Virus record (IMG/VR): IMGVR_UViG_2585427774_000008
Length of the DNA stretch: 41,590 bases
Origin: a virus
Lineage: Duplodnaviria > Heunggongvirae > Uroviricota > Caudoviricetes
Strand: one strand, 5' to 3'
Part shown: positions 1-22,765 of the stretch, piece by piece
Numbering within the stretch: the stretch's first letter is position 1
Layout: each line of letters opens with the position of its first letter
Position numbers and translations under genes: made by a program
Notes under the pieces: generated by a model
What the model was told of the DNA's origin: nothing
Database searches by the model: none
What the model saw: only the letters and a program-made list of their open reading frames with translations

Positions 1-1194
1 ATGATCACCGACACAAAGCTCAGGAAGGCGCTCGGCAAGAAAAGAGATGATATCGAGATTATTTCTGATTCGCACGGGCTCAACGCCAGAATCAGCCAGG
101 CCGGAAAAATATCATTTTTCTATCGGTATCGCTGGGCCGGTAAAGCGGTAAAACTCAATGTTGGTGATTATCCTGCAATGAGTATCACCCAGGCAAGAGA
201 GCGTCGCCAACAATTCAGAAACTGGTTAACTGAGGGACTGGATCCGCGAGAGCAGGTGAAGCTGGATAAGCAGACCCGACAGGAAGCGATGTCCGTTGCC
301 GAAGCGTTCAATTACTGGATTGAAAGGCACTGTATCGCTAACGGGCTAGTTAAAGTCGATTACTATCGCCAGGTGTTTGAGAAACATATCGCCGAACCGA
401 TGAAGAATGTCAAAGTCGATAACACAGCGAAAATGCACTGGATCAACGTCTTCGATTCTATAGAAAGCAGGGTGATGGCTCATTACATGCTTTCGCTGTG
501 CAAACGGGCGTTTAGGTTCTGCGTTAACAGAAGTGTGATCGCCTCAAACCCACTCGAGGGATTACTGCCATCTGATGTCGGGCAAAAGCCTAAAAAGAGA
601 ACTCGCAGGATGGACGATGACGATCTGCGCAAAATCTATCAGTGGTTGAAAAGCCATATGTCGATAGAGTCCGTTTTCCTGGTGAAATTTATTATGCTTA
701 CCGGATGCCGTACGGCTGAGATTCGACTTAGTGAGAGATCATGGTTTCGATTGGATGATAATGAGTGGGTCGTGCCTGCGGGCAGTTATAAAACTCGGGT
801 ACATATTAGAAGGGGACTCTCAGACGCCGCCGTTAACCTGGTCAGAAATCACCTCAAGAAAATAAACACCAATCACCTGGTGACTTCACAACGTAAAATT
901 GATGGCGGGATCAAAGATTCGCCCGTTCATTCACCTGTGGCATCCAATTACGCCCGTTCTATTTGGAATGGAACAGGTATGGCAGAGTGGTCGCTTCATG
1001 ATATGAGGCGGACGATAGCCACAAATCTCTCTGAGTTAGGTTGCCCGCCGCACGTAATTGAAAAGCTGCTCGGGCATCAGATGGTGGGGGTTATGGCGCA
1101 TTACAACCTTCATGACTATATCGATGATCAGAAACACTGGCTCCGCGTTTGGCAGAGCCATCTTGAAGAGATCATCGGAGAGCCCTTCAGTTAA
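1..1194 (+). CDS. int: Phage integrase (tyrosine recombinase)
   Basis: 397-aa ORF; C-terminal catalytic region typical of tyrosine recombinases (LHDMRRT...GHQ...HYNLHDY); window begins at its ATG. Confidence 0.9.
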
Positions 1195-16583: not shown

Positions 16584-16851
16584 CCCGACAGCAACTATAA
16601 ACGCGCTGTTATGTGCTTGTGTTGTTATTACTCTGATGTTTTATCGTCGTGGTGATTCGCGGCATCGTCCTTGGGTTTCACGTTTAGCCTGGCTGATTAC
16701 TGTTACATACAGTGCTGTTCCGTTGGCCTATCTCTGTGGGATTTATCCCCATTCCTCATGGCCCATTATCGTGGCGAATACTATTTTTCTTTCCGTGCTG
16801 GTGGCCGTCAGAGGCAACGTTGCACGCCTGGTTGATCATCTGAGGCACTAA
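16570..16851 (+). CDS. Second holin-like membrane protein
   Basis: 93-aa ORF from GTG with GGGGAGG SD; two to three hydrophobic segments; overlaps neighbours. Confidence 0.5.
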   Translation: MELNDPTATINALLCACVVITLMFYRRGDSRHRPWVSRLAWLITVTYSAVPLAYLCGIYPHSSWPIIVANTIFLSVLVAVRGNVARLVDHLRH

Positions 16852-17465
16852 TGAACCAACAATTATTTCAAAAGGCGGCTGGTATCAGCGCCGGACTGGC
16901 TGTGCGCTGGTTTCAACCAGTAGATGCAGCGATGAAAGAATTCGGCATTACAGCACCCGCGGATCAGGCCATGTTCATCGCTCAGGTAGGTCATGAGTCA
17001 GGCGGCTTTAGCGCTGTAGTTGAAAATTTGAACTACACACCATCTGCGCTGGTGGCGACCTTCGGAAAGAGGATCACACAGCAGCAGGCTGATGCGCTTG
17101 GCAGAACAACCGAACACGCAGCCCGCCAGGATGCTATCGCCAATCTGGTGTATAGCAACCGCCTGGGTAACAAAGCGCCCGGCGACGGCTGGAAATATCG
17201 CGGCAGAGGGTTAATTCAAATCACTGGCCTCGACAATTATCGCACCTGCGGGGCGGCGTTGAAGTTAGACCTCGTTACTTCACCTGAACAGCTCGAACAG
17301 GAACTTCAGGCAGCACGCTCTGCCGCCTGGTTCTACACATCCAAAGGGTGCATGGCCTACGGTGCCGATATTACTCGTGTTACGCGCATCATTAACGGCG
17401 GCCTGAATGGCATTGATGACCGCAAAATCCGCTACAACAAAGCGCGGGCGGCGCTGCTGGTATGA
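16851..17465 (+). CDS. Endolysin, glycoside hydrolase family 19 (chitinase-like)
   Basis: 204-aa ORF; GH19-type motifs AQVGHESGGF, NLNY, GRGLIQITGLDNY. Confidence 0.85.
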   Translation: MNQQLFQKAAGISAGLAVRWFQPVDAAMKEFGITAPADQAMFIAQVGHESGGFSAVVENLNYTPSALVATFGKRITQQQADALGRTTEHAARQDAIANLVYSNRLGNKAPGDGWKYRGRGLIQITGLDNYRTCGAALKLDLVTSPEQLEQELQAARSAAWFYTSKGCMAYGADITRVTRIINGGLNGIDDRKIRYNKARAALLV

Positions 17466-17854
17466 AAATGAGTTATTGGGTGCTCATTGTGACGTTTATC
17501 GCCTGTATTGCAGGCGGTCTTGTCTGGTCAGCGGATCACTACCATGGAAAATTTCTGGAGGAACAGCGTCGCGCTGACGATGCAGAACAGCGTGCTGATT
17601 CCTCTGAGACCATCACCGCGAATGTCCTGCGCACCGTAGCAATAACGAACATCATTCTGGAGACAAACCAACATGCTAAGCAGCAGATCGCACTGGAGTC
17701 ACAGAGAGCCGAGAACGATATCAAAGCTGCTGTTGCGGATGATGATTGTGCTGTTCGTGTTGTGCCTGCTGGCGCAGTTAAGCGGCTGCACGAATACGCG
17801 AACGGTCTACGTGCCGGTTCCGGTAGTTCCATTACCAGCCAGCCTGACGGCTGA
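17462..17854 (+). CDS. Rz-like inner-membrane spanin
   Basis: 130-aa ORF, N-terminal TM helix (YWVLIVTFIACIAGGLVW) then charged coiled-coil-like region. Confidence 0.7.
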   Translation: MKMSYWVLIVTFIACIAGGLVWSADHYHGKFLEEQRRADDAEQRADSSETITANVLRTVAITNIILETNQHAKQQIALESQRAENDIKAAVADDDCAVRVVPAGAVKRLHEYANGLRAGSGSSITSQPDG

Positions 17855-18239: not shown

Positions 18240-18860
18240 ATGAACAGACCACACCCACCAGCGCATTTTACGATGCCACCTGACCCGAAGCCGTACATCA
18301 GCATAATGCCCGCCAGTGACGTTGGCGAGTGGCTGAATCAGCACATCCTGAGCGATGAGGGTGACCTCTACAACCCTGATCACCAGCATTTGCTTGAAGC
18401 GGATCTGTGCTTTCTCTGGGCGTCGAACACTTTCGAGAAGAAAGGGCGGTCCGTGCTGGGGCAGGCGGAAGAAGTGGCAATGCGGGCTAGAGGCTGGCAG
18501 AAAGCGCGGATGGAGCAGCAGATGTATGAATGGTTCGGCAGGGTGCCGCAGTACATCATCACGCTGGCCGCTGATTACTGCTCGCAATGTTCTGATCTGG
18601 AGTTCTGCGCCCTGATAGAGCACGAGCTTTATCACATCTGCCAAGCGACAGATGAGTTTGGCGCGCCGAAGTTCACGCAAGAGGGGCTGCCAAAGCTGAA
18701 GCTACGCGGCCACGATGTGGAAGAGTTTGTGGGCGTGGTTCGCCGTTACGGTGCGAGCCGTGATGTGCAGGAAATGATTGATGCGGCGAATCAGCCAGCG
18801 GAGGTTGCTCATCTCGATATTGCCAGAGCTTGCGGGACGTGCATGCTGCGACTGGCTTAA
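18240..18860 (+). CDS. Hypothetical protein with HExxH metallopeptidase-like motif
   Basis: 206-aa ORF; ALIEHELYHI motif; start uncertain. Confidence 0.5.
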   Translation: MNRPHPPAHFTMPPDPKPYISIMPASDVGEWLNQHILSDEGDLYNPDHQHLLEADLCFLWASNTFEKKGRSVLGQAEEVAMRARGWQKARMEQQMYEWFGRVPQYIITLAADYCSQCSDLEFCALIEHELYHICQATDEFGAPKFTQEGLPKLKLRGHDVEEFVGVVRRYGASRDVQEMIDAANQPAEVAHLDIARACGTCMLRLA

Positions 18861-18890: not shown

Positions 18891-19364
18891 ATGGCTGCAT
18901 TAAAACCTGATGTGAAAGCCTTCATCATTCAGTCGCTTGCGTGCTATGACACGCCGACGCAGGTGGTTGAGGCTGTCCAAAAAGAATTCGGGATCAAGAT
19001 CACCCGCCAGCAGGCTGAATCTCACGACCCCACGAAGGCCAGCGGTAAGACGCTCGCCAAAAAGTGGATCGAGATGTTCCACGCTACGCGCGAACGGTTC
19101 CTGACCGAAACCAGCGACATTCCGATCGCGAACAAATCCTATCGCCTCCGCGTGCTTGACCGCATGGCAACCAAAACCGAGGGGATGAAAAACTTCTCCC
19201 TGACGGCGCAGCTGATTGAACAGGCCGCGAAAGAGGTTGGCGACGCTTACACCAATAAGCTGAAGGTTGAAAGCACTGGCAAGGATGGCGGCCCGATCAA
19301 GACCGAGACGACCAACCTCACCGCAGATCAGGCCGCAGAGATTTACCGCAAGATGATGGGGTGA
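18891..19364 (+). CDS. Putative terminase small subunit
   Basis: 157-aa ORF immediately upstream of terminase large subunit; N-terminus MAALKPDVKAFIIQSLACYDTPTQV recalled from small terminase-like proteins. Confidence 0.55.
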   Translation: MAALKPDVKAFIIQSLACYDTPTQVVEAVQKEFGIKITRQQAESHDPTKASGKTLAKKWIEMFHATRERFLTETSDIPIANKSYRLRVLDRMATKTEGMKNFSLTAQLIEQAAKEVGDAYTNKLKVESTGKDGGPIKTETTNLTADQAAEIYRKMMG

Positions 19365-19389
19365 TAGCCGCATGTTGCGGCTATGGATT

Positions 19390-19602
19390 CTAGGCTTGTT
19401 TTGGTCGAGTAATACGGCCAAGAGCTTTAATTGCAGCGACTTTGACGTTGTGATTTAGATCCGAAGATAAATCAAGTAAGCGATTTACATGAGCTGGCGT
19501 TGCTGAAGCACTCTCGCCGAGAGCATAAATTGCAGACAATTTTACTTCGTTGTTAAGGTCGTTGGTTAATTCCAACAACTTAGCGCTAACTGCTGGTGTC
19601 AT
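19390..19602 (-). CDS. Small HEAT-repeat-like protein (antisense moron)
   Basis: 70 aa from ATG at 19602 with AGGAGG SD; two repeats LNNEVKLSAIYALGE / LNHNVKVAAIKALGR; region appears AT-rich. Confidence 0.4.
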   Translation of the reverse strand: MTPAVSAKLLELTNDLNNEVKLSAIYALGESASATPAHVNRLLDLSSDLNHNVKVAAIKALGRITRPKQA

Positions 19603-19673
19603 AAAACCTCCTGTAATTGGTACATAAACAATATCAACTTTGTTACGCAAAAACTCAATGCCTGGAATTGTTT

Positions 19674-21296
19674 ATGCCTCTTCCGTTTGAATTCGATTTC
19701 AGAAACCCTGATTACCAGATGGTTTTTGAATGGCGGATGGAGCGCTTACAGCGCATTCGCCAGAACCCTGAAATGCTACCAGCGCTAAAGCAGTTTTATC
19801 GCACCAACCCGGCACAGTTCATCATCGACTGGGGTATGACTACTGACCCGCGTAACATCGATTATGGCCTGCCGGTCACCATCCCTTTTCTGCTGTTCCC
19901 GAAACAGGAAGAGTGGATTCACTGGATCATGGAGCGGCGCGAACGACTGGAGAACGGCATCACCGAAAAGAGCCGCGAAATGGGGCTCAGTTGGACCGCG
20001 ATCGGGCTGGCCTGCTCGCTTTGTCTCTTCAACAAAGAAATGGTTATCGGTTTCGGCTCCCGTAAAGAGGAATACGTCGACAGCACCGGTGACCCGAAGG
20101 CGCTGTTCTGGAAGGCGCGAAAGTTCGTGGAAACACTGCCCATCGAGTTTCGTGGTTCGTGGGACGAGAAGAAGCATGCGCCGTATATGCGCGTTGAGTT
20201 TCCAGATACTGGCGCGGTTATCAAAGGCGAGGCTGGCGACAATATCGGACGTGGTGACCGTACCACGCTCTACCTGGTGGATGAAGCTGCATTCCTCCAG
20301 CGTCCTCTGTTGATTGATGCGGCGCTGTCGCAAACCACCCGTTGCCGTATTGACCTGAGCTCGGTTAATGGCATGGCGAACCCGTTCGCGCAGAAGCGCC
20401 ACGGCGGAAAAATACCAGTATTCACGTTCCACTGGCGAGATGACCCGCGCAAGGATGAAGAGTGGTATCGCAGGGAGTGCGAGAAAATCGACAATCCGGT
20501 GGTGGTGGCGCAGGAACTTGACCTGAACTACAGCGCATCTGCGGAAGGCGTCCTGATCCCGTCCGACTGGGTACAGGCTGCCGTCGACGCGCATATCAAA
20601 CTTGGTATTCAGCCAACGGGCAAGCGACTGGGCGCGATGGACGTCGCCGACGAAGGCCGGGACAAAAATGCCTTTTCGACCCGTCACGGCTTCCTTCTGG
20701 AGAACGTGCGTGAATGGTCCGGCGTTGGCAGCGACATTTACCAGTCTGTTGAGAAGGTCTTCGGCTTTTGCGAACAGGACAACCTCGAAGAGTTTCGCTT
20801 CGACGAGGACGGCCTGGGTGCTGGCGTTCGCGGCGATGCGCGCGCCATCAACGAACTGCGTTACGCAGCGCGCCGACCGTCAATACTCGCCACACCGTTT
20901 CGTGGTAGCGGCGCGGTATTTGATCCGGACGATGAAGCGGTGCGCGGGGACAACGGACAGGCCGCACGCCTGAACAAGGACTTCTTCGCCAACGCCAAGG
21001 CCCAGAGCTGGTGGTGGCTACGCAAGCTTTTCCAGAACACCTATCGCGCCGTGGTTGAGGGCATGGCCTACAACCCGGACGAAATCATCTCAATCAGCAG
21101 CGCCATGGCGAGCAAAGACAAACTCATCATTGAGCTGTCGCAGCCGACCTACTCCATTAATGGCGTGGGGAAAATCGTTGTTGATAAACAGCCTGATGGC
21201 ACCAAGTCGCCGAACCTCGCCGACTCGGTGATGATCAGCTACGCGCCAATGAATTCAGCCCTGAACATCTGGGAGCTGCTAGGGAGACAGGCCTGA
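19674..21296 (+). CDS. Terminase large subunit
   Basis: 540 aa from ATG at 19674 (track starts at TTG 19617); Walker B-like [11 protein letters not shown]; position before portal. Confidence 0.8.
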
Positions 21297-22765
21297 TGGC
21301 ACGAAACAAGCAATCCTCTCAGCGAACGGCACAGGCCACCGCTGACGGCTACGAGAACTTCGTCGCCCGCGTTGGGATGCAGACGCCTAACCAGCATTCA
21401 GCATCGACCTACCGGGCGAACTTCACCAGCCGCAACCGCATGCTGGTGGAATGGTCATATCGCGGTTCGTGGGTTATCGGTGAAGCGGTCGACGCTATCC
21501 CGGACGATATGACCCGAAAGGGCATTCGCATCACTTCGGAGATTGACGCCAAAGACCGTGGCACCCTCGAAGCGCAACTGGATGAGTTGCAGATCTGGGA
21601 TGCGCTGAACGACGTGCTGAAATGGTCGCGCCTCTACGGCGGCGCGGTCGGCTTCATCATGATCGAGGGGCAAGCACCAATGACCCCGCTGCGACTCGAA
21701 ACCATTGGCGAGGGCAAGTTTAAGGGCATTCTCCCGCTCGACCGCTGGATGATTAACCCGGTGCTGACACGCCGCATTAAAGAGATGGGGCCGGACCTCG
21801 GCAAGCCTGAGTTTTACGACGTGGTGACCACCGCAACGGGTATTCCGGCCTGGCGCATCCATCACAGCCGCCTGATCCGCTTTGATGGCGTCACGCTGCC
21901 ATTCCAGCAGAAGATGACCGAAAACGAATGGGGAATGTCGGTTGTAGAGCGTATCTGGGATCGGCTTACTGCGTTCGATAGCGCTACTGTCGGCGCGGCG
22001 CAGCTGGTCTATAAAGCGCATCTGCGTACCTATAGCGTGGAGAAGTTGCGCGAGCTTATCGCGCTTGGAGGCCCGGCGTTCGAAGCGTTGCTGAAGAACA
22101 TCGACCTGATCCGCCAGTTCCAGAGCAATGAAGGTATGACGCTCATGGACTCGCGGGATAAGTTCGAAACCCACCAGTACAGCTTTAGTGGTCTGGATGA
22201 CATTCTTTCGCAGTTTGCTGAGCAGATCAGCGGTGCCGTTGGTATCCCGCTGGTACGCCTGTTCGGTCAATCCCCGAAAGGCTTCTCTACTGGTGATGCA
22301 GACCTCGCCAACTATTACGACCGGGTGAGCTCATTGCAGGAGCGCCGCTTACGGCTGCCGATGCGCCGGATACTGGACATTATGCACCGCTCGGAACTCG
22401 GAAAGCCGCTGCCGGACGATTTCACGTTTGAGTTTAACCCGCTATGGCAAATGTCAGACGTTGACCGATCAACGGTGGCCGTAAACACCACCAACGCGAT
22501 CAGTACCGCGCTGGGCGACGGATTGATGACGCGTAAGGCGGCGATGACCGACCTGCGCGAAAACTCTGACGTCACCGGCATCGGGGCATCCATTACCGAC
22601 GAGGATATCGAGAATGCCGAAGACGAAGCGCCGCCAGGCATCGGCGAACTTGGCGACAAACCGCCAGAGCCGCCAGGCGGAGATCCGATATCGAACGAGC
22701 CTACGGCAGATAGCGCGGGCGGTCGGGGATATCGTAAATGGTCGCTACGATGGTTCAAACGATAG
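21296..22765 (+). CDS. Portal protein
   Basis: 489-aa ORF after terminase; ATGA overlap with terL stop; acidic C-terminal tail. Confidence 0.75.
   Translation: MARNKQSSQRTAQATADGYENFVARVGMQTPNQHSASTYRANFTSRNRMLVEWSYRGSWVIGEAVDAIPDDMTRKGIRITSEIDAKDRGTLEAQLDELQIWDALNDVLKWSRLYGGAVGFIMIEGQAPMTPLRLETIGEGKFKGILPLDRWMINPVLTRRIKEMGPDLGKPEFYDVVTTATGIPAWRIHHSRLIRFDGVTLPFQQKMTENEWGMSVVERIWDRLTAFDSATVGAAQLVYKAHLRTYSVEKLRELIALGGPAFEALLKNIDLIRQFQSNEGMTLMDSRDKFETHQYSFSGLDDILSQFAEQISGAVGIPLVRLFGQSPKGFSTGDADLANYYDRVSSLQERRLRLPMRRILDIMHRSELGKPLPDDFTFEFNPLWQMSDVDRSTVAVNTTNAISTALGDGLMTRKAAMTDLRENSDVTGIGASITDEDIENAEDEAPPGIGELGDKPPEPPGGDPISNEPTADSAGGRGYRKWSLRWFKR

Follow-up and report, generated by a model that had tools for sequence, protein, structure and literature searches.

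A rare antisense HEAT-repeat gene inserted between the terminase genes of a mosaic temperate phage is a conserved, probable moron

The small and large terminase subunit genes (terS and terL) of one lineage of enterobacterial prophages usually lie 2 nt apart, which raises the question of what 309 bp of AT-rich DNA is doing between them in the viral record IMGVR_UViG_2585427774_000008, and whether the opposite-strand open reading frame (ORF) that it contains is a gene. The window analysed here is the whole stretch of that record, 41,590 nt of a mosaic temperate phage or prophage, with a lambdoid left half (integrase, exo/RecT, O and Q are 95-99% identical to those of the lambdoid phages mEp237, HK225 and phi80) and a right half that carries a myovirus structural module of SEN34/Omnitron type. 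An initial annotation, made from the sequence alone, had noted the minus-strand ORF in the terS-terL gap and proposed that it is an acquired moron, i.e. extra DNA between genes that are adjacent in a related phage, encoding a HEAT-repeat-like protein. The ORF is indeed the sole minus-strand gene of the late region, and from position ~14 kb to the end of the window all other long ORFs, shadow ORFs excepted, are on the plus strand. The HEAT gene is a well-supported but functionally uncharacterised moron, no surprise in kind, and a rare but conserved accessory gene. That the insert is an autonomous unit within the late operon, making a HEAT binder for use in some conflict, is favoured here with a probability of roughly 0.6.

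The most informative relative is Citrobacter phage Omnitron, whose TerL is identical to that of the window over all 540 amino acids and whose TerS is 99% identical. Omnitron has no cassette; its junction reads GGGGTGA-TC-ATGCC, with the dinucleotide TC in place of 19365-19673 and flanks that are 99% identical. The 309-bp block is a precise insertion between the terS stop and the terL start. A 2-nt gap also separates terS from terL in the prophages of Escherichia coli BL21 and E2348/69 and in phage SEN34, and it was counted in 64 of the 80 closest TerL relatives in IMG/VR, alongside one 4-nt gap and six copies of the 309-bp cassette; locus L120 (loci compared with the window are given L numbers) has the 2-nt gap as well, and was missed by the automated count owing to a variant terS tail. 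This terL family occurs in 349 of 5,426 complete E. coli genomes (~6%), five of which carry the cassette. The HEAT protein family itself is tiny, with seven clusters among 5.8 billion proteins, and a tblastn search of GenBank phages with the HEAT protein gave no matches, as its members occur only in prophages and IMG/VR contigs. The G+C content of the insert is 0.41, against 0.55 in terS and 0.57 in terL. The block has two of the hallmarks of a moron, extra DNA between genes that adjoin in a related phage and a base composition unlike that of its neighbours, and the proposal of an acquired antisense insert stands, since precisely the 309 bp are missing from a near-identical phage and the 2-nt gap is the usual state of the junction. 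Neither terminal repeats nor a target-site duplication were found at the cassette ends, only chance repeats of 8-11 nt, and nothing in the sequence there points to an insertion of the transposon or miniature inverted-repeat transposable element (MITE) type.

An ORF of 70 codons is not in itself beyond chance; this one is, because it is conserved with an excess of synonymous changes. The window and L026 alleles differ by eight synonymous changes and one non-synonymous change (dN/dS 0.04), and L026 and L027 by seven and none. A second clade of alleles gives dN/dS values of 0.09-0.15, and among distant alleles the proportion of synonymous differences (pS) is saturated at 0.7-0.9, with a non-synonymous proportion (pN) of 0.25-0.35. 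Judged by these substitutions, 19390-19602 is a real gene under purifying selection. Homologues in enterobacterial prophages are 68-72 aa long throughout and start at one alignment column, which bears on the annotation of the start codon. RefSeq, where the ORF is labelled 'HEAT repeat domain-containing protein', gives the same gene two starts: an ATG and 70 aa in L003 (4026-4238, WP_032214630.1), and a TTG and 86 aa in L002 (4026-4286, WP_136769304.1). The TTG, which is used in one genome's RefSeq record and corresponds to window position 19650, is unsupported because the stretch that it adds upstream is the non-coding promoter region. The alignment of homologues and a conserved GGAG-N4-ATG favour the 70-aa ATG start, and it is this start that should be used in annotation.

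The two HEAT-like repeats reported initially are recovered both by profile and by the structure prediction that the initial annotation had suggested. The 70-aa protein scores over the Pfam cut-offs for HEAT_2 (PF13646, 35.1 bits vs 27.7) and HEAT (PF02985, 31.0 vs 23.5), and under those for HEAT_PBS (15.6 vs 20.9) and HEAT_EZ (17.6 vs 27). AlphaFold2, from an input alignment of five sequences only, predicts four helices (residues 3-12, 18-29, 36-45 and 51-65) arranged as two pairs, with a mean predicted local distance difference test score (pLDDT) of 92 and a predicted template modelling score (pTM) of 0.80; tandem antiparallel helix pairs of this kind are what defines an alpha-solenoid. The best matches of the model in the PDB are engineered alphaRep/HEAT binders, with template modelling (TM) scores of 0.78-0.83 and root-mean-square deviations of 1.3-2.3 Å, and a Foldseek search against BFVD returned nothing at E <= 0.001. 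No signal peptide or hydrophobic segment was recognised on reading the sequence. Per-column variation across homologues leaves the B helices (AIYALGE and AAIKALGR) and R63/R66 invariant, and the variable positions (2, 6, 7, 11, 14, 16, 33-40, 44, 47, 49 and 51) fall in the A helices and the linker between the repeats, a pattern that suggests a repeat scaffold presenting a variable surface. The protein also diverges faster than its neighbour TerL, at 62% identity in L030 (TerL 96%) and 50% in L033 (TerL 91%).

Around the ORF, the cassette has a conserved anatomy. The HEAT and terL start codons are separated by 71-80 nt, which were aligned from eight diverged alleles, and the sole invariant columns are the CAT of terL, a TTG, ATA.T, GGAG and the HEAT ATG. 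The TTG and ATA.T hold a fixed position even though the spacer sequences otherwise do not align, giving a family footprint of TTGAnn-N17-(C/G)ATATT in which the putative -10 element ends 27-30 nt before the HEAT ATG (27 nt in the window) and the putative -35 element lies 13-17 nt from the terL ATG (15 nt in the window). The strong AGGAGG Shine-Dalgarno (SD) sequence of the initial annotation is in place before the ATG, as is the hairpin on the 3' side of the ORF, which lies 5 nt downstream of the HEAT stop on the minus strand and was found once in the window with 0 expected (100 shuffles). Stems of differing sequence stand at the same place in the window, Yersinia, Salmonella, L029, L030 and L031 alleles (the stems listed for these six are TAGCCGCA, AGCCGCC, ATAGCCGC, GGCCGC, ATGCCGCTC and GCCGCCA), so the structure appears to have been kept by compensatory change, and it may act as a weak terminator or as a 3' stabiliser. 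The length of the ORF, its start and its SD are kept down to 50-60% protein identity, a distance at which the non-coding parts can no longer be aligned. Taken together, promoter, SD, ORF and hairpin would make up a classical moron architecture. Coordinates are collected in the table.

Table. Positions of the HEAT cassette, its neighbours in the window and the terS relics at other loci (window coordinates unless a locus is named)
Feature	Position	Strand	Evidence or description	Remarks
Endolysin	16851-17465			
Spanin	17462-17854			
Putative metallopeptidase	18240-18860			
terS, DUF2280 type	18891-19364	+	Pfam DUF2280, E = 9e-50	left flank; stop TGA 19362-19364
GC-rich hairpin ATAGCCGCA-TGT-TGCGGCTAT	19364-19384		perfect 9-bp stem, 3-nt loop	abuts terS stop
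terS-terL gap (cassette)	19365-19673		309 bp	
HEAT gene, 70 aa, ATG start	19390-19602	-	two HEAT (PBS-lyase-type) repeats, four helices	
SD sequence AGGAGG	19607-19612	-	GGAG invariant in eight diverged alleles	4 nt before HEAT ATG
Putative sigma-70 promoter of HEAT gene	19630-19658	-	-35 TTGAGT 19658-19653, 17-nt spacer, -10 GATATT 19635-19630	
terL	19674-21296	+	PHROG 2 terminase large subunit	right flank; ATG 19674-19676
Portal	21296-22765			
terS 5' relics	L042:4860-4943; L047:4870-4950; L041:~810-890; L037:~443-500			

The insertion is not peculiar to the window. Fifteen IMG/VR contigs carry an antisense HEAT homologue in exactly this terS|terL slot, which is likewise filled in prophages of E. 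coli, Enterobacter kobei, Yersinia enterocolitica and Salmonella enterica, and the identity of the HEAT proteins within the slot ranges from 100 down to 50%. Beside the slot stand terS genes of at least three families (DUF2280, Terminase_2 and others), unrelated apart from a shared C-terminal tail of ~35 residues, and one and the same HEAT allele adjoins three different terS families. These final ~35 codons, with the motif ...TNLT.(D/E)QAAE.YRKMMG (window 19200-19364; L003/L004 3881-3997; L005 6255-6359), are shared by otherwise unrelated terS modules paired with this terL. They presumably encode the tail by which TerS docks to TerL, and presumably serve in addition as a left homology arm for the exchange of cargo.

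Other cargo is found at the same junction, and every alternative insert begins at the terS stop and ends at the terL ATG. A 434-nt insert in L114 (2067-2500), and at the same position in L095, holds an antisense ORF of 112 aa counted from its ATG (120 aa counted from the earliest possible start, MAFEEEILRQQIEQDVFHNEDSKV...), with its own AAGGAGA SD before the ATG, no Pfam family and an A/T-flanked hairpin (AAAGGGCAAAAATTTGCCCTTT) directly after the terS stop; this is probably a different antisense moron at the identical junction. In L119 the insert is ~630 nt long (locus positions 1870-2500) and contains an antisense 67-aa DUF1508/YegP-like gene (Pfam E = 3e-20) as well as a TATGCA-repeat element. 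The 176-nt insert of L057 (2305-2490, plus strand) ends in a plus-strand terminator-like hairpin (GGCTCGCTTAGGCGGGCCTTTTTATTT) and has a full-length but sub-threshold match to the small RNA (sRNA) STnc100 (31.8 bits vs a gathering cut-off of 47, E = 0.0014), so it may be sRNA cargo. Directly upstream of terL, six loci (L118, L116, L126, L123, L119 and the HEAT-bearing L032) have an apparently non-coding element of ~220 nt with three TATGCA-type repeats (GCTATGCAAAAnCnCCCnnTTTTATGCAnCGTTTATGCAGTCCG ... CGGGTAACGGTnnTTATGTTAAA), which is absent from the window and unmatched in Rfam; possible identities are a protein-binding site (pac or regulatory) and an RNA. In the region of the window itself, Rfam gave only an L25-leader match (18 bits vs 34, E = 0.42), rejected as a chance hit below threshold. 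With several alternative inserts, the terS|terL junction appears to be a cargo hot spot, where cargo would most simply be gained and lost through homologous recombination within two conserved sequences, the terS tail and the terL 5' end. Separately, the cassette-free loci of E. coli BL21 (L008:1361-1909) and E2348/69 (L009) have a 182-aa hypothetical gene antisense directly upstream of terS, which seems to be a further moron-like gene, situated where the lysis genes meet terS.

A second group consists of less similar homologues (40-57% identity, 68-69 aa when counted from the aligned start) from IMG/VR prophage contigs and from Citrobacter and Enterobacter genomes; they lie antisense between the lysis cassette and terS. 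In L035, L036 and L039 the HEAT and terS start codons are only ~30 nt apart. Across the family as a whole (~25 loci) the gene is antisense and lies within ~130 nt of the start of a terminase gene or its relic, or one ORF away, the adjoining start being that of terL in group 1 and of terS in group 2. Where extra cargo or a different terS intervenes (L042, L047, L041 and L037), what stands before the HEAT gene is a 55-60-nt relic, now decayed, of the 5' end (first ~18 codons) of a Terminase_2-type terS; MPLTDKQEIFCRGYLFDL* and MIPTDKPEMCSRKYPIGSTY* are examples, and an invariant TTGTCnGTG block is kept inside. In L047 a complete copy of the same terS lies ~570 nt from the relic, which indicates that the 5' end was duplicated when the extra cargo was inserted. 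The group 2 HEAT gene is read here as having moved together with the stretch that holds its promoter, for which no convincing -10 element could be assigned, the TTGTCnGTG block alone being noted. In L037 (756-2398) the HEAT homologue adjoins a convergent pair of genes, PIN-like/DUF4411 and helix-turn-helix (HTH)-ImmA/IrrE-type with N-termini judged by eye, which may be a toxin-antitoxin or defence pair.

These observations can be drawn together in a model in which an autonomous transcription unit has been inserted at terS|terL, within the Q-dependent late operon of a lambdoid/SEN34-like mosaic prophage. The minus-strand unit would consist of a moderate sigma-70 promoter (TTGAGT-17-GATATT), a leader of ~20 nt with the AGGAGG, 70 codons and, at the 3' end, a GC hairpin that forms this end or stabilises it, and it would spread, or be lost, via homologous recombination in the terS 3' tail and terL 5' end. 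The cassette faces against ~25 kb of late genes, and an antisense orientation to the whole late region is compatible with expression from a repressed prophage. Given this orientation and a promoter of its own, the gene would be read by the host's RNA polymerase in the lysogen, and head-on late transcription would shut it off by occlusion once the prophage is induced. The product would be a cytoplasmic, minimal two-repeat HEAT solenoid of alphaRep-like build. Binding of another protein is its most likely action, given an invariant B-helix scaffold with variable A helices and linker, and such a protein could bind or sequester its partner stoichiometrically in phage-phage, phage-satellite or phage-host conflict.

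Several results weigh against this model. Each instance of the putative promoter matches the consensus at 8 of 12 positions and falls under the scan threshold, so that the case for the promoter rests on the phylogenetic footprint and not on score; the scan for promoter and terminator consensus sequences called no promoter at all, nor did it call the hairpin. Its sole terminator-like site, inside the ORF on the plus strand (19399-19423), was set aside as unused, the scan counts being no better than those of shuffles. The hairpin has no adjacent U-tract on either strand and is for that reason not a textbook intrinsic terminator. The insertion also breaks the translational coupling of terS and terL, which could be a cost in the lytic cycle, or have a role there. 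Function-oriented searches gave little: PADLOC-DB 2.0 returned only weak, partial and generic matches of six of seven family members to the 1972-position HEAT-ARM_XIII model (10-27 bits), PHROGs had nothing specific for the HEAT protein, and NCBIfam PRK09687 (YibA) was matched at ~20 bits, against a cut-off of 275, by three homologues and not by the window protein. A profile search of 1.84 billion representatives gave 15,259 matches, mostly to unrelated giant HEAT proteins, and seems to carry no functional lead, the homology being to large generic HEAT proteins. Literature searches on HEAT-repeat morons, the RefSeq accessions and DUF2280 found no mention of the gene or family in the library searched.

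Of the other explanations, the one that survives best, itself improbable, is that the HEAT protein binds a terminase subunit, either to block superinfecting phages or satellites while the linked resident terminase is insensitive, or to serve in self-immunity or as an adaptor. Selection would then favour close linkage to terminase genes, and all ~25 true family loci are indeed antisense beside the start of a terminase gene or its relic; transplanted copies keep the 55-60-nt terS relic, and there is a precedent in Listeria TerI (bioRxiv 10.1101/2025.02.27.640495). In a bolder form, just as improbable, the 68-72-aa two-HEAT proteins would be a dedicated family of natural mini-binders tied to terminase gene starts and acting on packaging, through a Gram-negative equivalent of TerI-type interference with rival phages or satellites of the phage-inducible chromosomal island (PICI) kind, or as a shield of TerL/TerS from host sensors, with the A-helix face setting specificity. 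However, adjacency to terminase needs no functional explanation, because both positions are general cargo hot spots that also house unrelated genes, and the terS relic is better explained as a carrier of the promoter. The same HEAT allele stands beside three terS families, Omnitron has an identical TerL over 540 aa yet no cassette, and the likeness to TerI is one of position only.

Rather less probable is a role in anti-defence, in which the protein would mask a phage protein such as TerL or portal from Avs-type signal transduction ATPases with numerous domains (STAND NTPases), or sequester a host defence protein. Avs sensors recognise terminase and portal, and the idea rests on this background. 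A binder-type fold with its variation on one face, a divergence faster than that of the neighbouring TerL, and a rare, patchy distribution typical of conflict genes would all suit such a role, but a sigma-70 promoter of its own, directed against the late operon, agrees better with lysogenic or constitutive expression than with expression alongside TerL, and the protein has no match to known anti-defence families in the libraries searched, none of which is dedicated to them.

A still more doubtful explanation makes the insert a cis regulator, with the protein secondary: the block would uncouple terS-terL translation, and convergent antisense transcription would tune the TerS:TerL ratio or silence leaky late transcription in the lysogen. 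With the cassette, the 2-nt coupling of the window terL to terS is gone and its SD is weak (GGA), and the terL SD is weak or absent in most cassette-bearing alleles; the -35 element, moreover, lies 13-17 nt from the terL ATG. The window allele also contains a perfect 10-nt inverted repeat (19623-19632/19667-19676, CATAAACAAT/ATTGTTTATG) that overlaps the putative -10 region of the HEAT promoter and would pair the terL AUG in late mRNA. As a conserved regulator this repeat was rejected, being broken in L026 and absent from the other alleles, and the leader folds no better than shuffles (z -0.84 to +0.64). Against a cis role stand also the strong purifying selection on the protein sequence, the 98% of phages with this terL that do without the insert, and the unrelated proteins encoded by other cargo at the junction. 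Finally, that the region is no gene but a pac site, or a non-coding element of another kind, in which an ORF occurs by chance, as its place between the terminase genes, its AT-richness and its hairpin might suggest, is effectively refuted by the Pfam scores over gathering cut-off, the pLDDT of 92, the large synonymous excess and the ORF, start and SD kept among non-coding parts that do not align, nor can it be the pac site of most phages with the same terS and terL, since these lack the region; the comparison of relatives that the initial annotation called for found them either to lack the insert or to conserve it as coding, and not as the non-coding sequence, for example a packaging site, that would have spoken for such an element.

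New here are the clean and rare insertion at a recurrent cargo site, the conserved promoter footprint and hairpin, the family-wide antisense association with terminase genes and the corrected start; morons as a kind, and the RefSeq label of the ORF, were known. The cargo hot spot, the constant antisense position next to a terminase gene start and the missing U-tract go beyond the initial annotation. If the interpretation holds, a widespread lineage of enterobacterial prophages has at its terS|terL junction a small hot spot for cargo, whose logic would be like that of the P2/P4 and Listeria TERi hot spots and which could be mined for new prophage-expressed conflict genes, and the HEAT gene would encode one of the smallest natural alpha-solenoid binders. 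Should it prove to be a packaging-directed mini-binder, it would be considerably more interesting. The window and Omnitron form a natural presence/absence pair, a ready-made experiment both for the function of the gene and for the cost of uncoupling terS from terL.

Among known systems, TerI is a 65-aa antisense gene in the lytic module of Listeria comK prophages that is expressed in lysogeny, inhibits the terminase of invading phages and so blocks packaging, at a TERi locus where unrelated genes alternate behind a conserved promoter (bioRxiv 10.1101/2025.02.27.640495). The HEAT gene resembles it as a small opposite-strand gene (65-70 aa) in a lytic module, at a locus of alternating unrelated genes, whereas TerI overlaps an early-module gene and the HEAT gene sits at the terminase junction, and no genes for self-immunity were recognised here; targeting of terminase by the HEAT protein would be pure conjecture. 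In fold, the 31-residue helix-turn-helix repeat is that of the PBS-lyase HEAT proteins and of the alphaRep binders (PDB 3ltj, 4jw2, 4jw3 and 8aw4; TM 0.78-0.83). The alphaRep libraries share the division into a constant scaffold helix and a second helix on which the variation gathers; where their variable positions lie is reportedly described in Urvoas 2010 and Guellouz 2013. Unlike natural HEAT proteins, the window protein has only two repeats and no dedicated caps, the matches of the profile search being 500-3000 aa long, and unlike those of the PBS-lyase type it has no lyase context. Three family members show a weak repeat-unit similarity (E ~2e-4 to 5e-4) to E. coli YibA (PRK09687, 'putative lyase'), but YibA is a chromosomal protein of 285 aa and the scores given above place them outside its family.

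The nearest parallel is with the lambdoid morons as defined by Juhala and Hendrix, such as lambda bor and lom and the extra genes of HK97. The HEAT cassette differs from these in sitting inside the terS-terL pair, where it breaks a 2-nt coupling, and not between modules, in having a hairpin without a U-tract, and in encoding a soluble two-HEAT-repeat protein and not an envelope protein. It shares with them the extra DNA between genes that are adjacent in a close relative, the deviant base composition, the promoter-like and hairpin elements and an orientation that permits expression from a repressed prophage, and, like lambda bor, it lies antisense to the late operon near the boundary of lysis and packaging.

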